A stretch of DNA of 64,000 bases from an uncultured Candidatus Peribacteria bacterium (GCA_964540725.1 CAZINU010000001.1:159419-223418); one strand, 5' to 3'. Counted from the first letter of the stretch, positions 5,444 through 59,936 are shown. Program-made: numbers and translations. The notes: generated by a model from the sequence alone, not told the origin.

Positions 5444-5941
5444 CTATCTCCGCTCACTCACCATTCTCCGGGCGTCCCGGTCGAGATCGCGCTCCTTCAG
5501 GACCTGCTTTTTGTCGTAGGCCTTTCGGCCCCGGGCGAGGGCGACCTGGATTTTTGCCAAATTCCCCTTGAAGTACGCTTCGGTCGCGATGAGCGCGACG
5601 CCCTTTTCCTTCACTTTCCCTGCGAGCCGGTCGAGGTCCTTTCGTTTCAGAAAGAGTTCACGGTCACGGGTAGGGTCGACCGCGCCCTTGATGCCGGGGG
5701 CGTGGGAATATGGGGAAATCCGCATGCCCGTAACGACGGCGCGGCCTCCGGCAATGATTACGTAACTGCCTTTGAGGTTGCATCCGCCTTCGCGCAAGCT
5801 CTGTACCTCCCACCCGAAGAGCTTGACGCCCGCCTCCAGCGTTTCGAGCACTTCGAAATCGAAGAGCGCCTTCTTGTTCTGGGCGACCTGGGTGATTTTC
5901 GGGGAAGGGCGTTTGGATTCGGACATTTTGACTTTTGACAT
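5444..5941 (-). CDS. smpB: SsrA-binding protein SmpB
   Basis: The product has QNKKALFDFEVLETLEAGVKLFGWEVQSLREG, ISPY and ALIATEAYFKGNLAKIQVALARGRKAYDKK. The start is ambiguous (ATG at 5974, 5941 or 5926). The stop is TAG. Confidence 0.9.
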   Translation of the reverse strand: MSKVKMSESKRPSPKITQVAQNKKALFDFEVLETLEAGVKLFGWEVQSLREGGCNLKGSYVIIAGGRAVVTGMRISPYSHAPGIKGAVDPTRDRELFLKRKDLDRLAGKVKEKGVALIATEAYFKGNLAKIQVALARGRKAYDKKQVLKERDLDRDARRMVSERR

Positions 5942-18493: not shown

Positions 18494-19312
18494 TCACTTC
18501 GCGGCACAAACGCACTCCGGGTGCGGAGGCAGTTCGAACCGACGGCTCGAAAGGGGCGCTTCGAGAATTCCGGGGATGCCGGAAACCGAGAATACGATCC
18601 AGTTCGAACCGATGGGCGGAAGGGCGTGTTCGGTTCCTTCGAGCAGGAGATCGAGCGAAGCCCGCGAAGCGGTCTTCGCGAGAAACGACTGGTCGATACC
18701 GATGCCCGGAGCCGTTTTGGCATCGCGGGAGGAAGAACAGTCGGCCTTCCCGCCGGTTTTGCGGAACGTTTCGAGAAAATCCTTTCGGTTTTGGTATTCG
18801 AGGAAGCACGAATAACAGGCCGATTTTGGTCGGCAGACGAGAATTTCGCCTCCGCACCCGCGCTCGAACATGCTGACGAACACGGCGGCCGTTCCCGATT
18901 CCCTCGCGATTTCGCCGGAATAGGCGCGCGAAGCGTCGGTATCGGTTCCGACGACGACGAGGTCGGATTCCGCGACCGCCCGTTCGAATTCGGTACGGGC
19001 ATCGAAGACGCTTTTCGGAAACGCGAGAACGTCCGGAAGCGGCTCGAGCGAATACCGTTCGAGGAGCCGCTTGGCCGCCTCGGCTTTGTTTTGGCCGACG
19101 TACTCGGCTCCGCATGCGTGGCGGACCAGGTTGCCGGGCTCGAGGACGTCGCCGTCGAAGAGCCGGAACCGTTCGATTCCGCACCTGAAGAGGTCGAGCG
19201 CGATTTCGGCCGCCCCGCCGAGACCGACGACGGTCACGGTTTTTCCGGAGAGCGGGGCATGGAGGGGGTCCCGGCGCGCGTTGGGTTGGCGGTAGGGCGA
19301 TTCGGTACGCAT
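18494..19312 (-). CDS. E1-like ThiF/MoeB-family adenylyltransferase
   Basis: AAAGGA-N6-ATG lies at 19312. The product has GKTVTVVGLGGAAEIALDL (Rossmann GxGxxG), FDGDVLEPGNLVRH, VVVGTDTD and a CYSC motif. It ends in TGA. Strict table 25 would extend it to TAA at 18287. Confidence 0.8.
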   Translation of the reverse strand: MRTESPYRQPNARRDPLHAPLSGKTVTVVGLGGAAEIALDLFRCGIERFRLFDGDVLEPGNLVRHACGAEYVGQNKAEAAKRLLERYSLEPLPDVLAFPKSVFDARTEFERAVAESDLVVVGTDTDASRAYSGEIARESGTAAVFVSMFERGCGGEILVCRPKSACYSCFLEYQNRKDFLETFRKTGGKADCSSSRDAKTAPGIGIDQSFLAKTASRASLDLLLEGTEHALPPIGSNWIVFSVSGIPGILEAPLSSRRFELPPHPECVCAAK

Positions 19313-48957: not shown

Positions 48958-49020
48958 TTAGCACACTCATATAAAACGTGCTAAAAAGCATTTGACAGGA
49001 GGGGTTGGCACGCATATACT
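48958..49020 (+). promoter_or_regulatory. CIRCE (HrcA) operator followed by a sigma-70-like promoter upstream of dnaK
   Basis: TTAGCACAC-N9-ACGTGCTAA lies at 48958-48984. It is followed by TTGACA (48992)-N17-TATACT (49015). Confidence 0.7.
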
Positions 49021-49052
49021 TGGGTGCGAATTATCCATTGTCTTTTTTCCGT

Positions 49053-50939
49053 ATGTCTAAAATCATCGGCATCGACCTCGGTACCACCAACTCCTGCGTC
49101 GCCTTCATGGAAGGCGGACAAGCCAAAGTGATTCCCAATGCCGAGGGCGGCCGCACCACGCCGTCGGTCGTCGCGTCGAAGGGCGGCGATACGCTCGTCG
49201 GCATGCCGGCCAAGCGCCAGGCCGTCATGAACCCGGCCCAGACCATCTATTCCGCCAAGCGCTTCATCGGCCGGAAGTTCAGCGAAGTCGGCAGCGAACT
49301 CAAGACCGTTCCGTTCAAAGTGACCGAAGGTCCGGACGGGGGATGCCTTATCGAGTTCAACGGCCAAGCCGTCCGCCCCGAGGAGATTTCGGCCAAGGTT
49401 CTCGAAAAGCTCAAGGAAGACGCCGAGAAGTTCTTGAATGAGAAGGTAACCGAAGCCGTCATCACCGTTCCGGCCTACTTCAACGACTCCCAGCGGCAAG
49501 CGACCATCAACGCCGGAAAAATCGCCGGCCTCGACGTCAAGCGCATCGTCAACGAACCCACCGCCGCCGCCCTCGCGTACGGCATCGAGAAGAAGAAGGA
49601 CGAAAGGGTCGCCGTCTACGACTTCGGAGGCGGAACCTTCGACATCTCCATTCTCGAAATCGGGGCGGAGGGAACCTTCGAGGTGCTCGCTACCAACGGC
49701 GACACCCACCTCGGAGGCGACGACTTCGACCAGAAGATCTTCGAATGGATCGTCGAAGAATTCAAGAAGGACCAGGGCGTCGACCTTACGAAGGACCCCA
49801 TGGCCGTCCAGCGCGTCAAGGACGAAGCCGAAAAGGCGAAGAAGGAGCTCTCGTCCGCATCCGAAACCGATATCAACCTGCCGTACATCACGGTCGACGC
49901 TTCCGGGCCGAAGAACCTCTTCATGAAGCTCTCTCGCGCCAAGTTCGAAGAACTCGTCTACGACCTCGTGCAACGCTCGGTCGAACCGTGCCGCAAGGCC
50001 CTTTCCGACGCGGGACTCCAAGCTTCGCAGATCGACGAAGTCATCCTCGTCGGAGGCTCCACCCGCGTTCCGCTCGTCATTAAAAAGGTCGAAGAAATCT
50101 TCGGAAAGAAGCCCAACGCGTCCGTCAATCCCGACGAAGCCGTCGCCGTGGGCGCGGCCGTCCAGGCGGGTATCATCCGCGGCGACGTCACCGACGTCCT
50201 CCTCTTGGACGTTACGCCGCTTTCCCTCGGTATCGAAACCTTGGGCGGCGTCATGACCCGAATGATCGAGCGCAATACGACCATCCCGACGAGCAAATCG
50301 CAGGTCTACTCCACCGCCGCCGACAATCAGGATTCGGTCGAAATCCACGTCCTCCAAGGTGAGCGCGAAATGGCGGGCGACAACAAATCGCTCGGACGCT
50401 TCATTCTTTCGGGCATCGCCCCGGCACCCCGCGGCATGCCGCAGATCGAAGTCACCTTCGATATCGACGCTTCCGGCGTCCTCCACGTAACCGCCAAGGA
50501 CAAGGGAACCGGAAAAGAACAGAAGGTCTCCATCCAGGGTTCCACCGGAATGGACGACAAGGAAGTCGAAAAGCTCGTCAAAGAAGCCGAAGCCAACCGC
50601 GAAGCCGACAAGAAGCGCAAGGAAGGCATCGAAGCCCGCAACCATGCCGATTCGGCCCTCTATCAGGCCGAAAAGACGATGAAAGATAACGAAGGCAAAT
50701 TCGACGACGCCCTGAAGGCCGAAGCCGAAGGCAAGGTGGCCGATTTAAAGAAGGTGCTCGAAGATTCGAACGCTTCGAAGGAATCTATCGAAGAGGCTAC
50801 CAAATCGCTCACCGAGGTAATGATGAAGATCGGTCAGGAAATCTATTCCAAGGCCCAGAATTCGACCGACGCCGGCAATGCCGGACAGGGCGGGGAAGGG
50901 GAGGCTTCCTCCGAGTCGGAGGGAAGCAAGGCGGAATAA
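49053..50939 (+). CDS. dnaK: Molecular chaperone DnaK (Hsp70)
   Basis: The product starts [14 protein letters not shown] and carries [17 protein letters not shown] and a C-terminal lid. Confidence 0.97.
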
Positions 50940-50959
50940 CCGCCTCTCCGCGACGACGA

Positions 50960-50998
50960 GAATTCCCCGGTTCCGGCCGGGGAATTCTTGATTTTTTT
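50960..50998 (+). terminator. Rho-independent terminator after dnaK
   Basis: GAATTCCCCGG-ttccgg-CCGGGGAATTC is followed by a T-rich tract. Confidence 0.65.
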
Positions 50999-51372
50999 CG
51001 ACAGTATGATGCAATACGCCTTATTTCCTAACCCCTCCCGCCATGAAACTGAAACCGGATCCGAACGCGTCTCCCGAGTACCCGGCCGTCCCTCCTTCCG
51101 TCCCTGCCAACGCCCAAGTTTCGCGCTTTCGCTCCGTATCGGCCCGTATGCGCGTATGCGAGGGGGTGGTCGATCCGGGGGAATGCGTCGGAAGAACGAC
51201 CGGTTGCACGCCGGAGAAATGCGAAATCTTCGCCTCCCGAGTGGCCCGCCTTCTCGTCTGTACGAGAATGGCATGGAATTTGCCCAAACGGAAGTAGGGG
51301 GTTCGGAGCGATTTGACACCCGCAAAACCTTCCATAGAATGCGCCCGCTTCGGTTCTCCGAGGTTCCCATGT

Positions 51373-51447
51373 TGGGGTATCGCCAAGCGGTAAGGCAGCG
51401 GATTTTGACTCCGCCACGCGGGGGTTCGAATCCCTCTACCCCAGCCA
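51373..51447 (+). tRNA. tRNA-Gln (anticodon UUG), CCA encoded
   Basis: TGGGGTATCGCCAAGCGGTAAGGCA matches the tRNA-Gln 5' half, including the U1-A72 pair. The anticodon stem is GCGGA/TCCGC with loop TTTTGAC. The T-arm is GGGGG-TTCGAAT-CCCTC. The acceptor 3' strand is TACCCCA, followed by G-CCA. Confidence 0.9.
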
Positions 51448-51462
51448 TAAGGGTCATAAACG

Positions 51463-51492
51463 CAAAGGGAAGCCGAAAACGGCTTCCCTTTG
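51463..51492. terminator. 13-bp hairpin between tRNA-Gln and the recombinase gene
   Basis: CAAAGGGAAGCCG-aaaa-CGGCTTCCCTTTG. It lies inside the still-open recombinase reading frame. Confidence 0.5.
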
Positions 51493-51555
51493 CCGTTATC
51501 GGAGTTCGAACTTTTTTTCCCGCCCCCCTTCTTCTTTTTGGACCTCGTTAGAACT

Positions 51556-53216
51556 TCACGATGGAAAATGCCTTGGAATAGCGGTTTCAGGCGGAAGTTC
51601 ACTATGCGCCCCCGATGAACGATGACGTAGTCGAAAATCGCTTTCGCCACTCATCGTTTTTTTCGTGGCGGGAAGTTTTTGAAATTGGTAGCGAGCTCTC
51701 TCGCGTAGGATAATGGTTCGTTTATCATCTCCGCGTTCCTTTCGGATACCGCGGGAAGGTTGGCGAGACGGTTCTTCGTCTCTTCGATTTCGACTTCCAG
51801 CTTGGATAACTGGTCGCGGATTTTTTCCTTCAGGAAAGGAAGCGTTTCCTCTACGTAGACCTTTAAGTTCCGTTGGCTTTCCCCTTCGAGCCTTCCGAGT
51901 TTTTTCCGAAGCAGGTTTCCGACGTCTTCTTGGAGTTTCCCTTCGGATTCGAGTCGAATCTCGATTGCCGTTTTGAGAAGTTTCATTTCTTCTTCGTCGA
52001 AGACCAGTTTCGATATGATTTCCTCGTTCAGAAGATTTTCCAGTGTGATGCCCGATATGAACTCGTTGTCGCAAGCCCCCTTTTTATTACAGGAGCAACG
52101 GTAGTATTGGTAGGATTTCTCCTTCTTTTTCTTGGTTTCCGCGGTAAACGGACGGAGCGATCAATTTTTCACGGCCGTTTCGTAATCCGTTCCGTCTCCC
52201 ATTTGGCACGGACAACGGACGATTCCTTTCCAAAGATACACTTCGTTTCATTCCCCCCATCCGCCTTTCGGTCAGCATTTCTTGCCTTCTCGAACGGCCC
52301 GGCATTGGTCGAACAGCCGTTTCGATATCAGGGGTACGAACGTTCCGAGTTCCCGTATCCGTTCGGTATAATCGACGACGACGCTTCATTCGCCGATTTC
52401 CATGAACGGGTATTTTTCTCGCAAGTACTCCCTTGCTTCGTTGTCGGGCATCTTATATTCGATTGCCACCCGACCCCAGTACAATTCCTGCGACAACATC
52501 TTTTCCACGTCCTTTTTCGTGAATTCCTCGATAATCTCGGGTTTTTCTCCGGAACGGTATTTCCGAAATCCGAGGCCGTTCAGTTTTTCTGCCAAGCTTT
52601 CGAAGCTGTACTCCCCCGTGGAATACAGTTCGAAACAGTTTATGACGGCCTCGTTTATCCGATGGTTCGTGTCGATTTCTACGCGCGTATATTTTCCTCT
52701 TCCATTCCGTACGTATCATCTCGGCACTTGTCAGGAAATCGTTCCTTTCTCACGAATGGCACTATCGAGGTTCATGACGCCACCGCGGGATTTCTCCATG
52801 CTTTCGAAGACCGCTTCGTTTATGGCGTCCGCAAGTGCTTTCTTTCCCGACAGCACGGAACAATCGAAGCCTTCCCGTATCGAATATACCTTAACGACGT
52901 TCCCGACCACGTACCTTTTCAGAACGTCTCATTCTTCGAAGTTTCTCGCCAAACGCGAAGCCATGTAGACGAAAACCCCGTCGATTCTTTCGCCTTCGCC
53001 GAGAACGTTCCTTTTCCGTATCTCTTCCAGCATTTCCGTAAACTCGTCCCGACATCCAGCGACGAAGCTCGATTTGTTGTCCTTGAAAACTTTCACGATT
53101 TCGAATCAGCGCTTTCGGCATTCCGTGGTCAGCGCGTCGATTTGAAAGTCGATCGAAACCGAACGGTCCTTGTGTTTCAGACTGCTCCTTCTGGCGTAAA
53201 TGAAGACTTTTTCCAT
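51556..53216 (-). CDS. Large serine recombinase (integrase), 9 in-frame TGAs, 3' end undefined
   Basis: MEKVFIYARRSS...SIDFQ (catalytic Ser) and YMASRLARN mark the resolvase domain. The recombinase domain has PLISKRLFDQCRAV. The zinc ribbon is VRCPCQMGDG...YQYYRCSC. A coiled coil follows, then the C-terminal AIFDYVIVHRGRIVNFRL. There is no in-frame TAA or TAG until 51021, so the frame crosses tRNA-Gln antisense. Confidence 0.85.
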
Positions 53217-53735
53217 TGCGGGCGTGGGTTATGGAACCGTCGGCTTATTACCGTCTCCGAATCTTGAAATCGACGATGGTTCCGCTCGAATCCGTCACCG
53301 TTTCGAGTTCGTCCGTCGGACCGAAATTCATGAAGTACCGGAAAAGGTCTTTTCGGTACTTCCACAGGTAGAGCGCGAGGAGTCCGAAGGCTTGGTTCGG
53401 AAAGTGGTCTTTCGCTTCGGATATTGTCGGTTCGGTCCAATTCCTTTTCGAAGCGTGTTTTCATAAGGAATCGAGAGCGTGCTTGGAAGCTCTCGGAAGG
53501 TTCGGCAGGTTGGCCATGAACCCCCTTACGGCTTCGGAAAGGTTTTCGGCGATGCCGATGGCTTCGGCGGTCGAAATCTCGTTTCAGCGGTACCGGTAGC
53601 CCTTTCCGTCGGGAGAAAGGAGTTTTTTCAAAATCTGCTCGATTTCGCGTTCTTTCCTCGCGTCGTACGGTTGGTTCGCCATAGGATTTCGGGTTAACCC
53701 GTAAAAGATACCGAAAAAATCCGAAACCGAAAATC

Positions 53736-54497
53736 CTACAGCCATTCTGCGACTTTTTTGAAAGAACGATTCAAGGCTTCCTTGCGTTCTTCGTCGCTCC
53801 TTCCGTCGTCTTCCACGAATCACGGAACGAACAGCACGGCGATTATCGGGAAAACGAAGAATCAGGCGGAGAAGGCTTCGAACCATTCGGGCGTGGTACC
53901 GATTCCGTCGAATATCTTTACGGGAACCATAAAAAGAGCGAAAAACGCGAACCAGTGCTTCTTCAAAAGCGTGGTGATGACGAGTATCGCGTAAAGGAAT
54001 CCGAGACCGCTCAAAAGCGATGCCATCGCCACGAAGAAGAGAACGAATCATCGGACGTTCGACGGAATCTTCGAAAGGATTGCGTCGGCGGTTTTGATCG
54101 CTTCGCAAATCCAAGCGAGAACTTCTATCCAAAGGGGGTATCGCGTTTCCTTCGGTCGCGGTTTTTCCACGGTCGGTTTCGGTTCCGACGTCCGCCGAAC
54201 CGAAAGGTTCGATTTGAGGCTTTCGTATTCTTCCATCATCGCAACGAAATCGGCCCCCTTTCATCAGCGGTCTGGGTGGTATTTCATCGCGAGTTTGCGT
54301 TTTTGCCCTTCGAGCAAGGCTTCTTCGCCGACGAAGTACCGGTCTTTGGGGAAGTGTTTCATACGCGCGGTCGGGTAATGGAAAAACCTTTCCGCGATTG
54401 TATCTGGGAAAAATGTCTTGTCCGGTGCTTTAGTGCGGAGATTGCGCGGTACCCGAGTCGATACGCGGAAAACGCCCAGACACGCTCGAACACGCAT
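53736..54497 (-). CDS. J-domain (DnaJ-like) membrane protein
   Basis: KRKLAMKYHPDR-[TGA][TGA]-KGADFVAMMEEYESL restores HPD-x-GG (54261-54266). Hydrophobic helices follow. There are 5 in-frame TGAs in total. The stop is TAG at 53736. Confidence 0.75.
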
Positions 54498-54515
54498 CGG
54501 CTTTTTTCGTCATTT

Positions 54516-55211
54516 TTACGACCTTTCCGATTCCAAAACCCCTCGAACGGTTTCCAAGGTGAGGAGTCCGAAGTTTTCGGGAAAGTACGTTTTCCGATTC
54601 TGGTCTTCGGGGTCTATTCGGAACAGTCCGAGGTTTTCCGTTTTGGAATACAGGATTCGCGATTGCCACTGCTTCATTCATAGGGCGAAAACCTTTCGGA
54701 CGGAGAAGTCTTTCCTTTCCAAGAGTTCCAGCATTCAGGCGAAAACCCTTTCCGATTCGTCCGCATACCCTTTTCCGACGGTTTCGGAACTCCCGGTTTC
54801 GAGCGAAAGGCAAGGAGCCGAGAGCGTTCGGTATCAGGGTTTCACGGCTCCGTCGGACGACTTGCCCGTAAAAAGGAGCACGCACGCGGGAATCTTCGTT
54901 CCGTTCACGCTCGCGGACGTGAAGGAAACGTTCGGATACCCGTCTCACGGAAGGAGGCGGTTCGCCATTTTCCTGAAATGTTCGAGAACGGTTTTCAATA
55001 TCGGCAGTGCCAAGAGCGCGGAAGAAACGGTTTTCGGATCCACTTTCAGTTCGAAGACGACGAAAGATTGCGAACGTACTATCCGTCCGACCATCCGGTC
55101 GGGAGCGAGCGTTTCGTGGAAAGAGAAGAACGCGGGAATTTTCGAAGATTCCACGGCCCTTTCCAACGCGTCGCGGAGCGTCGTCCTATCTTCCATCGCC
55201 GATTTCGACAA
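54516..55211 (-). CDS. Hypothetical island protein (4 in-frame TGAs)
   Basis: ORF 54945-55211 continues in frame through TGAs at 54945, 54834, 54735 and 54678 to TAA at 54516. The composition looks protein-like, but I recognised no motif. Confidence 0.5.
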
Positions 55212-55671
55212 GCCTCGCCATCTCCGCGCGTATCTGTTCCAATTCCTCCGTTTTCTTTTCTTCGCTCATCCCGAGCTCTTCGAGCTTCATTCGGAGCTTG
55301 TCGGATTTCAAATCGGAATCGAAAGGGTTGGAAGAATCCGAAGAGAACGAATCGAGTTCGGCTTTGCGTATTTCGTTTTCGAGTTCGCGTTGGCGGATGG
55401 CGATGGTTTTCAACGCGTGGACGGTAGCCCGTTCCTTTTCGGCGAGTTTCCTGTATTCGGTTTCGGCCTTGGAAAGCGGTTTGCCTTGTCGTGATTCCGA
55501 CCGTTCCGAAGTTTTGGAAGAAGACGGCGTGTGCCAGAATGCGAAGAACGCGACGAGCGCGAGAACCGCTATGAGTCCGAAAGAGTCGCCGTCCGTCGGA
55601 CTTTCCTTCTTGGGTATCGGCTTCGGAGATTCCGTCGCCGTGGCGTACGCCGTTCGGTAAAGTGCGTCCAT
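55186..55671 (-). CDS. Hypothetical TM plus coiled-coil island protein
   Basis: It starts MDALYRT, has a TM helix (FGLIAVLALVAFFAFW) and then an E/K/L-rich coiled coil. The stop is TAG. Confidence 0.5.
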   Translation of the reverse strand: MDALYRTAYATATESPKPIPKKESPTDGDSFGLIAVLALVAFFAFWHTPSSSKTSERSESRQGKPLSKAETEYRKLAEKERATVHALKTIAIRQRELENEIRKAELDSFSSDSSNPFDSDLKSDKLRMKLEELGMSEEKKTEELEQIRAEMARLVEIGDGR

Positions 55672-55740
55672 AGTAAGGGAAAAATGAAGGTGTAATCGGC
55701 GTTTTCTGCGCCTCGTTATCTCCAATGGATGCCACGGACG

Positions 55741-55835
55741 TTTTCTCAAATCTTTTTCCGACTTTTTTCGCGTTTCGACACGCGACCGCACGCCGAAGCG
55801 GAAAAGTCGGATTTTTGAAAAAAGATTTGAGAAAA
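55741..55835. repeat. Long imperfect inverted repeat inside the island
   Basis: TTTTCTCAAATCTTTTT..CCGACTTTT (55741-55766) matches AAAAGTCGG..AAAAAGATTTGAGAAAA (55802-55835). The two arms flank a GC-rich 35-nt spacer. Confidence 0.5.
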
Positions 55836-56357
55836 CGGATCGCTTTTCGAATTGGATGGAAGTTCGGCTCCGTCCGACGGCTTACCAATTCATTTTTTTC
55901 GACATGAAGAAAACTACCGAAGAAACCACGTGAGGATTCTATTTCCACTCCGACGATTTCGAACCGTCGAGAAAGCTCGAAGACGGCGATTCCTTCGCGC
56001 ACTACCGTTTTCATTTCCTTTGCCGGTACGCGCTCGACGTGCGGGGAATCGAGGATTTTTCCTTCACGGTTTGAGAATTCGTGGAAAACGCCAAGGCGAA
56101 GAAGATTTGAAATCCCGAAAAACTCTCGGCGTCGCTTCTCGACGGTTGCGTACCCGAAAACCCGTACCTTTCCTTCTCTATGGAAAACGGGGTTCCGAAG
56201 ATTTCCGTTTCACAGCCGAACTGAAGGGGAAGCATAGGCGAAAACCTCGTCGTGCTCGATTCGGCGACTTGCTCCGCGGTTTCGAAAGACGCCGAAGCGT
56301 TCAAGTTCCTTTGTTCGGTCGTGAAGAACTGCCGAGGTTAGCGAACCGATTCGAAAA

Positions 56358-56396
56358 GAAAAATCCCGAACCGTAGTCAACGGTTCGGGATTTTTT
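56358..56396. terminator. Bidirectional terminator inside the island
   Basis: ATCCCGAACCG-tagtcaa-CGGTTCGGGAT has A-runs and T-runs on both sides. Confidence 0.6.
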
Positions 56397-56743
56397 GAAA
56401 AAGTCGGTTTTTTTCTTGAGAAAACGCGGAACCCATCCATTTCGCAAGACAACGGCTGACCGAGTACAAACGGTCGTCCCAGAGCGGTGAGTCCCCGAGG
56501 ATATAAAACCGCGCAAATGGGTCGCGATGAGCCGAAACGCGAGGCATTCCTTGGCGAACGCAGTCCGATATACGGAACGGGTTCGAACTTCTCCGTTTTG
56601 GCGAAAGCCAAACGAGTGATAAGTCCCTAACGGGATGAGTGGTAGCGACGAGCGTTTTTTCGTGCTCGCTCTTCTTTTTGTCGGTTTTGAAAGAGCGGGC
56701 ACGCCCCACGAATCGAATCCTCAATCGGAACAGGCTACAAAAA

Positions 56744-57982
56744 CTACCGCTCTCTATCTTTCAATAAGACTATGAAATCTTCAAGATTCATGAGCCAGCC
56801 CTTCTGCCTGTCCGTATAGGTTTCATGAAGTTTCTTCGGGAGGATGAGTTGAAGATTTTCACTTCGCATCTCGTCCGTTTGAGATTCGCTGATTGCTGTT
56901 TGAAGAGTGATGAGATGTTTTTTCTCGATTCGTTTCGCTTCGGCTAAAACCTGTCTCCATCTGTCTTTACAGGTTGTCTTCGCGCCCAGCATTGTCAGTT
57001 TACTTATTGGAAAAGCGGGATTTCTGTATTCGTCGATTCATGGAAAGAGGAAATCCGGTTTGGAGCGGTTTTCCGTTATTTCAGTTCTTGAATGCCTGAT
57101 GGATCTGCTTTTGAAAAGATGTTCTATATGGTTTTCCAAACTTGCTCAAGCGCGACTTTTCCTTCTGTTTTGAACATGGAGCGAGAAACCTATGAATCCT
57201 TCAACGTCGGCAATGCCCCGACCATCCATGAATCATTGGGAAAGCCTGTCAGCCAGATGATAACGCTCCAAGGTTCTAAAAAGTACCTCCTCACGTTCCA
57301 TCCACGCCATAAGGACGGAATCTGAATCATCCAAGGCATCGACGCCTTTCAAAGTTTGCCGAGCGTATTCGGAAAAGATTTTCGTACTTGGAAACGAGTC
57401 TTTTCAAAAACGAGAAAGCATATCTTCCAAGAATGTCTCGTCTTCCGTCTCCACCTGAAATCCTATCGCTTCCAAAATTGTTTTTGCTGCGAACTCGATT
57501 CGAACCTGTCAGGTTTCAATTTCGCTCCTGACTGAAAATCAAGGATGGGCTGACGTCGTTAGGCCAAAGAGCCATTCTAATTGGCTGGCGATAGTCGAAT
57601 CGTTTTCGGCAATAATGATCAACAGCCGTCAGTTCGGTAATTTGCCGATGATTAGTAAGTCGCCTTCATTGGCGCATTCAGAGACGCTGGTTGTCGGAAA
57701 ATAGAGCCTATATTCAGAACGTCAGGTTTTCTCGAAACTTTTAGCCCTTGGGTCATACCAAGTCACCGTTCATTCATCCGAGACGGCTTCGTCGTCAAAA
57801 TCGTTGAGGTACAGAAAATGCGCTTCGAAATACTTCTTTTCTTGCTCCTCTCACAACATCGTTTTAAGTCCTTTTACCCCATTGAACTCGTGCTGATTCG
57901 AATTCGCGGGATTCGCTTCGACTGCGCTCAATCGCTTTGCAGCGATGCTCTCAAAATATTTGGAAAGATACCCGTTTTCCAT
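56744..57982 (-). CDS. Type II restriction endonuclease, EcoRII-like (10 in-frame TGAs)
   Basis: Hand-joined 412-aa product. The N-terminus is MENGYLSKYFESIAAKRLSAVEANPANSNQHEFNG. The C-terminus is PDFLFP...GAKTTCKDRWRQVLAEAKRIEKKHLITLQTAISESQTDEM. The family call is from memory of EcoRII-type sequences. The ATG directly follows the methylase TAA. Confidence 0.75.
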
Positions 57983-59263
57983 TTATGCCGTAGTTATCAA
58001 AGAAGGAGCGTCCTCTTTCATTTTAGCCAACAAGGGCGAATAAAGCGATAGCTGTTGATTTTTTATACCCATGATATGGGGTTTCATTGCTCGCGCTGCT
58101 TCGCTCATAACTGGAACGACGACGGAGTTTCCGAATTGCCTATAAGCTTGGGTGTCGGAGACCGGGATTTTGAAAGAATCGGGAAATCACATCAGACGCG
58201 CGCATTCACGGGGTGTAAGTCGCCTTGGATTCTTATTTTTACCCCTTGAGACGAGTATTTCCGAACCATCTTTGTAATATCGGGCGGAGAGAGTTCGACT
58301 TGTGTCATTCGGCGTCACCAATCCGAATCAGAACCCATTTCACTTCGCCTTGTGCTTCTCGGCGTATCATTGTAAGTATGCCCACAGCTTGTCTGATAGG
58401 GTGAACTTCGATTGAACTTTTCATTTGGAACCGTGAATGTACCTATTTCCATCATGTTCAATTGGCAATTCCGTTCCGTCCTCTGGATGAAGGATGAAGT
58501 TCATCTTCGGTGCCGATAATGGAATGTTGAAGGAGTCCCATGAAAAATCAGTCTTCTCCCTGAATCCAACTATCAGTATTCGTTCCCGATGTTGTGGAAC
58601 CCAAGATTTTCCATCTACGACCTTCCAATGTACGTCATAACCCAATTCATCTCGTAATGTTTGTAAGATTACGCGGAACGTATTGCCTTTATCATGGGAA
58701 ACAAGATTTTTTACGTTTTCCAGCAAGAAAGCCGAAGGGCGTTTTTCTGCGATAATTCTTGCGACATCAAAAAAAAGAGTTCATTGGGTGGTACATTCGA
58801 AACCATGAGGACGACCAAGGGAGTTCTTTTTACTTACCCCAGCGATAGAGAATGGCTGACAAGGGAAACCTGCCAGCAATACATCATGATTCGGTATATC
58901 TTTCGCTTCAACTTTGGTAATATCTCACTCCACCTTGTGATCCTCCCCGAAGTTCTCGACGTAAGTTTTTACTGACCAAGGACTCCATTCGCTCGTAAAC
59001 ACGCACTTTCCGCCTGCTTGTTCGAAACCAAGGCGAATGCCACCGATTCAGGCGAAGAGGTCTATGAACGTGAAATCTTGTCCGCCATTTGTTCAGTTCT
59101 TGGAGGAAAGGGCTTCTTTAAGGGCTGGGATTATCAAGGATGGGGTGGGGATTTCACCTTTTTCCCAACGTCGAATGGTACGAGAGTTCCTTCATAAAAT
59201 GTTCGCGATTTCTCATTGAGAAAAGCGTAATCGGGCCTTTGCGAGCATTTCTTGCGGACTCAT
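57983..59263 (-). CDS. DNA cytosine-5 methyltransferase with N-terminal HTH (11 in-frame TGAs)
   Basis: An Xre-like HTH (SQ-[G]-EIANIL-[G][13 protein letters not shown]) precedes the methylase motifs. These are motif I FIDLFA-[G]-IGG, motif [10 protein letters not shown], motif VI ENV, motif [24 protein letters not shown]-[G]-FPD and QFGNSV. Confidence 0.9.
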
Positions 59264-59308
59264 ATTTTCGTTTTACTGGGTAAGATTTCGGACAAAATAT
59301 CCGGATTC

Positions 59309-59345
59309 TGACACATGTCAAAAGGCATTTTATGTATTTTTACAT
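59309..59345. promoter_or_regulatory. Palindromes in the AT-rich region upstream of the methylase (candidate operators)
   Basis: TGACA-ca-TGTCA lies at 59309-59320 and ATGTA-tttt-TACAT at 59332-59345. Confidence 0.35.
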
Positions 59346-59501
59346 AAAACCATATGTAATTTATAAGCGAAACACAATTTATTTGTGGATTTACTCGTCT
59401 CAAAGAAGAAAAGCCTCCGTTAATCTCGCTAAATCGTCAGGCTTACAGCCTTTCATAAAGAGTTCTAACACTGCCTCCTCGGGTCAGCCATTCTCGAATC
59501 A

Positions 59502-59706
59502 AAAATCCCCCGAAAGGGGGATTTGTTGTTCGAGAAGGCGGGGTAGAGGGATTCGAAGCCGCCGCCTTCCGTCTCGTCCGCCGGAGGCGGCGAGGCGGTA
59601 CGGAGCCACTATTCGTGGCTCCGTAGGCAAGGGGTTCCGAGGAACGAGCGTCCGGCGCCGCATCGCGGCCCGGCGCGACATTCCGAGGAAAGAATCCCTC
59701 TACCCC
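59502..59706 (-). ncRNA. Structured element B (candidate ncRNA) with terminator; paralogue of element A
   Basis: On the minus strand the 5' arm GGGGTAGAGGGATTC (59706-59692) pairs with the 3' arm GAATCCCTCTACCCC inside 59540-59557. Internal hairpins are present, for example ACGGAGCCAC-gaata-GTGGCTCCGT. The shared 20-nt core is at 59627-59646. An AAATCCCCC-tttc-GGGGGATTTTT terminator lies at 59503-59524. Confidence 0.35.
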
Positions 59707-59936
59707 TCCGCAAGTTTCCAACGAACGGGGGCGTATCGTTCCAACATTCCTCTATCCCCAGTACGCGGAGGGGTTTCTTCCCGAAAGCCACCGTATCGAA
59801 TCCTTCCAAATTTCGATTTGCTTTTTCTTTCGGAATCCATAGAGTCTTCGGGCTCAAAAAGGCGGGAAGGGTTTTTCGCCTGTTGATTCGGAGTGATTTT
59901 TCCATATACTCCCCACCGTCATTTTTCATTCGTACC

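Follow-up and report, generated by a model that had tools for sequence, protein, structure and literature searches.

The integrase gene (int) of a genomic island in an uncultured Candidatus Peribacteria bacterium has no stop codon of its own. It would probably take its stop from the DNA across the island junction, its C-terminal tail would depend on the state of integration, and the arrangement would be an inherited trait of its clade. We give this reading a probability of about 0.8. The island lies in the window, the whole 64,000-nucleotide stretch that was analysed; the island and its int locus are called WIN below.

In the proposed scheme, the island would have been integrated by its large serine recombinase between tRNA-Gln and rplU of a bacterium that uses genetic code 25. 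Beyond about residue 557, the int frame would continue through about 33 codons of island DNA and then cross the tRNA 3' end in the copy that the island carries, the proposed att core. Because the frame crosses this core without a stop of its own, the stop would be supplied by the DNA on the other side of the junction. In an integrated island this would be antisense tRNA and host DNA, for 731 aa in WIN; in a circle it would be the other end of the island itself, for 623 aa. What the DNA shows directly is the layout, the conservation of that layout, and a frame that stays open in a constant phase.

The integrase open reading frame

The int ORF lies on the minus strand, from ATG at 53216 to TAA at 51023-51021, and has 731 codons with TGA read as glycine. 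No in-frame TAA or TAG precedes this TAA, in agreement with the preliminary description, which had read the frame as stop-less in the integrated state and antisense through tRNA-Gln to 51021. There are nine in-frame TGA codons, which under table 11 would be nine breaks. The final one is codon 522, and because no stop of any kind follows it, the read-through is independent of the chosen code.

The folded part of the recombinase comprises codons 1-557 (51546..53216, minus strand; Pfam, AF2 model and homologue alignment) and ends ..FHREVLT. Past the fold, the frame traverses 98 nt of island DNA (51448..51545, minus strand), a stop-free tail of 32.7 codons by frame translation that is predicted to be disordered (pLDDT below 35) and contains a 14-bp hairpin with the 15-nt att repeat beyond it. 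It then traverses the entire tRNA-Gln(UUG) gene in antisense (51373..51447, plus strand; ARAGORN; Rfam tRNA 60.6 bits), which lies opposite codons 590-615, and 350 nt of host DNA. The host-encoded continuation of the integrated state occupies 51021..51372 on the minus strand by frame translation and ends with the TAA at 51021-51023.

Pfam identifies Resolvase (PF00239, 9.6e-14) and Recombinase (PF07508, 7.1e-9) domains; Zn_ribbon_recom (PF13408) scores 2.7e-4 and 21.7 bits, under the cut-off of 25.3. PDB matches are to the catalytic domain of TP901-1 integrase (1e-10). The catalytic motif Y-A-R-R-S, with S11 as the serine nucleophile, is invariant across the homologues, as are the Cys columns of the alignment. 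The AlphaFold model has strands at 355-388, long helices at 408-508 and a returning hairpin at 528-543, in keeping with a zinc ribbon and its embedded coiled coil, and order extends to the final helix at 545-557, or about residue 557. Residues 556-731 have pLDDT below 35 and lack secondary structure. By its catalytic domain, Recombinase domain and zinc ribbon with coiled coil, the predicted enzyme is classed as a large serine recombinase.

The preliminary description had offered an indel error in the A/G homopolymers (51500-51535) as an alternative, by which a true stop would have been removed or the frame shifted. Homopolymer runs are error-prone, and in the +1 frame the conserved part closes with a TAA within GTTCTAAC, but the chance that this explains the open frame is close to nil. 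An independent Logan contig of the source run shows 0 differences and 0 gaps, and no corrected sequence with an earlier stop was found, as this contig matches 51373-59317 exactly. The homopolymer stretch has equal length and frame in the 62%-identical homologue L001, with mostly synonymous differences. Furthermore, a 132-nt alignment with six homologous loci is ungapped, in the same frame and with the same 107-nt spacing, and 13/13 loci behave alike.

A decaying pseudogene of an immobilised island is a very improbable origin as well. The host-derived extension is very long (174 residues beyond the fold) and remnants of att are present at the right end, as decay might leave them. Against this, the 731 codons contain neither TAA nor TAG, the catalytic motif is preserved and no domain is damaged, the direct repeat is perfect over 15 nt, and near-identical int genes occur in other metagenomes. 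In two of these (X2 and X3, from sludge and wastewater), window positions 51634-56735 are found with 0-3 differences over int and about 5% over neighbouring cargo, a pattern suggesting that the element has spread recently or is mosaic.

Genetic code of the host and the island

The host reads TGA as glycine (code 25), and its stops are TAA and TAG only. This assignment follows from a tRNA with anticodon UCA, from RF1 as the only release factor and from the pairing of TGA columns with glycine. The genome (1.18 Mb, 40 contigs, about 58% GC) has the UCA tRNA adjoining tRNA-Gly(GCC). Its single release factor scores above the RF1 cut-off and not above the RF2 cut-off, and no RF2 was found in the genome with the release-factor profile cut-offs. 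The gene for this RF1 (G000:C8:9870-10925), the only release-factor gene of the genome, itself carries an in-frame TGA. In an alignment of 11 recombinases, glycine is the most frequent partner in columns holding TGA (105 cells) and tryptophan never occurs there. The invariant glycine of the P-Y-G-Y motif is TGA or GGN in 11/11 sequences.

Host core genes seldom use TGA, and host dnaK has 0 TGA in 644 codons. The lower-GC island genes have 9-11 TGA each, a contrast drawn between window positions 49005-50939 (dnaK) and 51021-59263 (island). The nearest int relatives sit in DNA of about 36% GC. On codon usage and composition, the donor of the island was probably a lower-GC, TGA-richer code-25 organism.

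The island and its attachment sites

The island is 8,264 bp (8.3 kb) long, sits between tRNA-Gln and rplU, and carries an EcoRII/Dcm restriction-modification pair among its cargo. A repeat search found the 15-nt direct repeat GAATCCCTCTACCCC in perfect copies at 51428-51442 and 59692-59706, both on the plus strand. The left copy lies within the tRNA 3' end and within the ORF, and the right copy at the far end of the island. Chance is an unlikely source of this repeat: a 9-kb stretch should contain about 0.04 chance repeats of 15 nt, and this one sits at the tRNA 3' end, as in homologous elements. Inspection of the sequence also showed 18 nt of the tRNA 3' end copied in inverted orientation at 59540..59557 (TTCGAATCCCTCTACCCC as read on the minus strand). 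Upstream of tRNA-Gln, a promoter scan found a promoter-like site, TTGACA-16-TAGAAT (51313..51340, plus strand), convergent with int. A search of 50900-51800 against Rfam returned nothing except the tRNA.

Three elements have both ends in hand: WIN (8,264 bp, 15-nt repeat), L003 (6,885 bp, 20-nt repeat) and L014 (13,043 bp, 25-nt repeat in three copies). All three fit the layout of a tRNA-targeting integrative island, with the intact tRNA at one end beside the integrase gene and its displaced 3' fragment, as a direct repeat, at the other. In two genomes of the same genus (G175 and G133) the site is empty, and tRNA-Gln is followed after about 150 nt by rplU. Recombination between attP and attB by the WIN recombinase would account for the island borders and the empty site in relatives. 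The enzyme that inserted the island would be the large serine recombinase because it is the only recombinase found on the island; Pfam searches of the island ORFs found no second one.

The crossover would lie within the 15-nt repeat, and its placement is approximate because the WIN attR flank alone does not restore a canonical acceptor stem and because a degenerate tRNA-Gln 3' end, CCTCTATCCCCAG, lies beyond the right att repeat at 59752-59768. CCTCTATCCCCAG resembles the same-genus acceptor strand CTCATCCCCAG more closely than the window's own tRNA does. The end that was first displaced may be the one at 59752-59768, in which case 59707-59751 would be left over from an older insertion. A contig of run X1 joins 51447 to 59684 (depth 34, 25-nt side, 6 differences in the tRNA) and is too ambiguous to be taken as an empty site or an excision product. 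Among IMG/VR viral contigs, no relative was found, and they yielded no free or circular form.

Predicted integrated and circular forms of the integrase

In all three two-ended elements, the repeat begins on the tRNA 3' end or one base ahead of it and ends in the T-loop, inside the int ORF. The att core had been placed within the 3' end of the int ORF in the preliminary description, and this position holds for WIN, L003 and L014. With the repeat inside the ORF, an integrated and an excised element must encode different C-termini. For WIN, the same description had expected such a difference and a TAG about 32 codons past the repeat in the excised frame, and both expectations are borne out by joining the frame across the repeat. 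The joined frame reads ..GWGRGI-LSSECRAGPRCGAGRSFLGTPCLRSHE and stops at TAG 59609-59611, which is 32 codons from the repeat start and 27 beyond the repeat end, for a predicted product of 623 aa as opposed to 731 aa in the integrated state. The continuation predicted for the excised circle by this in-silico joining, 27 codons and TAG, occupies 59609..59691 on the minus strand. Translation of the tail, and with it the existence of two protein forms, would follow from these frames.

The integrated and reconstructed circular forms have 607 and 603 aa in L003. In L014 both have 623 aa, because the chromosomal int-side junction is already attP-like. The middle copy of the L014 repeat is this attP-like junction, identical over 69 nt to the left end of the element, and the order is int tail, 44 nt identical to the element left end, a 99-nt relic and the real tRNA. 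The copies of the tRNA-Gln 3' end in L014 (G301:C5) lie at 5474-5542, 18517-18585 and 18641-18665, and the 99-nt stretch between the middle copy and the tRNA is a relic of a second element.

The peptides after the core have nothing in common among the three reconstructed circular forms. In the integrated state, the stop lies 28-427 nt beyond the tRNA 3' end (10 integrated tRNA-junction loci measured). The C-terminal ends of the forms are ..GGVRK, ..LRSHE, ..TLQV, ..SLAG, ..LGVL and ..PLAA, and no degron or other motif common to the integrated and circular forms was seen.

Conservation of the open frame across the family

Seven clear homologues (594-628 aa) came from a protein search, with 31-60% identity to WIN int by BLASTP and 29-62% in the alignment. 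All seven extend beyond ..REVLT via S-S-N-S .. K-P-L-L .. G-W-G-x-G-I-R-T. The comparison was made over 13 loci from about 5 lineages, consisting of the homologue DNA, five same-class genome loci and two metagenome loci. Homologue alignment had been proposed as a means to locate the natural C-terminus, and 0/13 loci end directly after the conserved segment or have any stop between the fold and the junction. The frame enters a convergent tRNA in antisense in 12/13, with Gln(UUG), Gln(CUG), Ser(GCU) and Trp(CCA) as the targets. The phase through the T-loop is constant in the tRNA-junction loci (ATT/AAT CGA ACC/ACT, read as I/N-R-T). The spacers are 107, 110, 128 and 131 nt long, and every difference in length is a multiple of three. 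The exception is L017, in which the frame runs into DNA without a detectable tRNA; neither an Rfam family nor a tRNA was found at its junction.

The standard-code outgroup P0011 (23% identity) aligns up to R-E-V-V-T and then has an ordinary stop, and no tRNA was found near its gene. On this comparison, the stop-less int is probably inherited within a small clade of serine recombinases that target tRNA genes in code-25 bacteria.

The functional protein could instead end at about residue 557 and the state-dependent tail could be a functionless by-product, left open because only TAA and TAG end a frame in this code, because the strand is poor in T and because site constraints have frozen the DNA near att. 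This neutral account is plausible, although we hold it to be somewhat improbable. It agrees with the predicted disorder of the tail, with the unrelated peptides after the core and with the fact that the host sets the ends of the integrated state. Shuffles give a chance of 0.08-0.56 that a tail stays open, so a single locus may be open with a chance of up to 0.56. Over the five lineages, the joint chance is about 1e-3 to 1e-4, a figure that shared ancestry makes optimistic. No lineage (0/5) gained a stop in 32-40 codons, even at 24-40% GC, the range of most of the 13 loci, and the multiples of three in the spacers with their conserved phase also speak against it.

A conserved ORF of 133-150 aa lies directly upstream of int in three lineages (L003 5270-5677, L004 8118-8519, L005 58-459; also L013 and L014). 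WIN (window 53248-54264) and L001 share a different upstream protein. Pfam returned no family for the conserved upstream ORF or the other island ORFs. The proteins upstream of int are candidates for a directionality factor or a regulator.

Constraint on the tail

The stop-less tail is poorly conserved between lineages, and its two parts differ in the kind of constraint. Codons were compared within lineages. In the gene body, third positions are much less conserved than amino acids, with identities of 0.37 and 0.63 between WIN and L001. The first tail segment, S-K-K-K-K-G-G-G-K-K, is kept between the two with 6 synonymous changes (one of them GGC to TGA) and 1 non-synonymous change. This is protein-level constraint with the pattern of translated sequence, in a small sample, and it counts against the neutral account. 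In the next 22 codons (66 nt) up to the tRNA, third-position identity is at least as high as amino-acid identity (0.82, 0.77 and 0.95 for three pairs). Between SSNS and the tRNA, the constraint acts on the nucleotides and not on the protein. Therefore, part of the open frame could be a by-product of constraint on a DNA site, as the neutral account holds.

In the class with 107-nt spacers, the tail region is ungapped, and GTTCTAA and GTTCGAACTC are invariant. The alignment shows two short motifs in this region: GTTCTAAC at the VLT codons (51547..51554, minus strand), which is nucleotide-invariant and has an inverted partner at the other island end, and the palindrome GTTCGAAC at the SSNS codons (51504..51511), nucleotide-invariant in the 107-nt class. 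The partner of GTTCTAAC is the conserved left-end motif GTGTTAGAACT (59461..59471, minus strand; motif search). GTTAGAAC occurs only twice in the window, inverted and once near each island end, and its left-end copy, GTGTTAGAACT, is kept in L003 and L014. The inverted 8-mer pair GTTCTAAC/GTTAGAAC thus lies at window positions 51547-51554 and 59462-59469, about 100 nt and about 225 nt inside the att repeats, and is nucleotide-conserved across lineages. In L017 (18470-18520), both copies of the 8-mer are 25 nt apart and could form a hairpin.

A reading of these motifs as attachment sites was considered and not adopted, with the 51-bp GTTCTAAC-N35-GTTCGAAC as an attP-like site and the 41-bp GTTCTAAC-N25-GTTAGAAC of L017 as an attB-like one. 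The inner 35 nt of the former are its most variable part and lack dyad symmetry. A programmed frameshift at the A-runs was rejected, as the runs are not kept in L003 or L004.

Hairpins, transcripts and the possible fate of the message

A hairpin of 14 bp followed by GTTTAT, terminator-like in the int direction, is predicted by folding in the ORF tail (51462..51493, minus strand; dG -30, z -5.5). The preliminary description had a hairpin in the int frame as well; its presence stands, and its length is 14 bp in place of the 13 bp given there. The coordinates of that description are all confirmed. The equivalent hairpin of L001 was called terminator-like. A family-wide terminator was rejected, as the hairpin is significant only in WIN and L001 (z about -5) and moderate in L015. 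About 85 nt past the excised-form stop, the sequence itself shows another hairpin, a GC hairpin followed by a T-run when read in the direction of int (59501..59523, minus strand). The host has tmRNA (53.4 bits) and SmpB.

The RNA run X4 has low-depth contigs on 51498-51701, 52223-52635 and the restriction-modification genes, for which DNA carry-over is possible. Adapter remnants in X4 suggest an int-sense fragment that ends at 51498, in contigs that cannot show strand or ends and whose gaps in coverage carry no weight. An RNA-library contig also covers the spacer from the dnaK terminator to the tRNA-Gln promoter (51017-51212). Its adapter remnant suggests plus-strand sense, and a small RNA and read-through from dnaK are both possible sources.

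These features bear on a non-stop design, in which the integrated int transcript would end at the tail hairpin or collide with tRNA transcription before it reaches a stop. Ribosomes would then stall, and tmRNA-SmpB would tag the integrase for degradation and keep its level low while the island is integrated. The strong hairpin with its U-rich tail in the int direction in WIN and L001, the tmRNA and SmpB of the host and the convergent tRNA promoter are all compatible with this design, which we nevertheless consider unlikely. The hairpin is significant in the WIN/L001 lineage only, it lies upstream of the att core and would be active in both states, and the T-run in WIN is weak and was not called by the terminator scan.

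A related and equally doubtful proposal is that the missing stop is a built-in sensor of the integration state. Only the circular int message would gain the element-encoded TAG (59609-59611) and the terminator at 59501-59523 and become a productive mRNA. The integrated message would end at the hairpin or run into the convergently transcribed tRNA gene, the ribosomes would be rescued by tmRNA-SmpB, and the integrase would be tagged and removed. The tail, with at least 41 residues, would let the whole fold exit the ribosome while it is tethered over attP. Such a non-stop or state-sensing model is possible and is not supported across the family. If it were true, integration would switch the integrase off without a repressor.

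Comparison with known systems

In the Mx8 system (IntP/IntX), attP lies inside the int coding sequence, and integration replaces the 3' end of int and thereby changes its C-terminus (PMC6070905; also PMC4383910). The att core inside the WIN integrase frame has this layout, in the 3' part of the ORF and with a C-terminus predicted to change on integration. The analogy that the preliminary description drew to Mx8 therefore holds for the layout and does not extend to the enzyme. Mx8 Int is a tyrosine recombinase in which the swap is reported to alter specificity, whereas the WIN enzyme is a serine recombinase and falls outside that tyrosine-recombinase class. Moreover, only a predicted disordered tail would be exchanged in WIN, and no stop precedes the core in either state.

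In mycobacteriophage BPs and its relatives, attP lies in the 3' end of an ORF at a tRNA target, and stability is controlled through the removal of an ssrA-like degradation tag (PMC4557955). As in BPs, the integrated and free forms of WIN encode different C-termini at a tRNA target. In BPs it is the repressor that is split, and the integrase is a tyrosine recombinase; in WIN it is the integrase itself, with no consistent degron seen. The 'suicidal' integrases of SSV-type archaeal viruses likewise carry the recombination site in their own ORF (PMC7253208). Their gene is cut by integration into two pieces, neither of them active, whereas the whole catalytic and DNA-binding fold stays intact here.

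The WIN enzyme resembles phiC31, Bxb1, A118, TP901-1 and SPbeta in its resolvase, recombinase and zinc-ribbon domains and embedded coiled coil. To our knowledge, classical large serine integrases have their att sites outside the int ORF, in protein-coding or intergenic targets. The WIN clade differs from them in targeting at least four tRNA species. The Islander study (2014) stated that no serine integrase was known to use a tRNA gene as its target. No later paper on a serine integrase with an ORF that crosses attP was found within a partial coverage of the literature. The sequence comparison supports a serine-recombinase, tRNA-targeting variant of the Mx8-type layout with attP inside int.

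In Tn4451, the circular intermediate creates the promoter of tnpX. TnpX and the WIN enzyme are both large serine recombinases with expression signals that depend on the junction of the circular form; the signal is a 5' promoter in Tn4451 and would be the 3' end and stop codon in WIN.

Implications

An att site placed in a reading frame makes the gene product report the insertion of the element, as in a few tyrosine recombinases and in phage repressors. The precedents of the Mx8, SSV and BPs type are all tyrosine-recombinase systems, and here the arrangement appears as a conserved trait of a large serine recombinase clade. For annotation, such genes in code-25 genomes would be called with host-dependent ends that overlap tRNA genes, and filters that forbid overlap between CDS and tRNA would discard them.

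Large serine integrases are major genome-engineering tools. Their directionality has been ascribed solely to a separate directionality factor. If the C-terminus, and possibly the fate of the mRNA, changes with the state of integration, this would be a simple new control principle for these enzymes.
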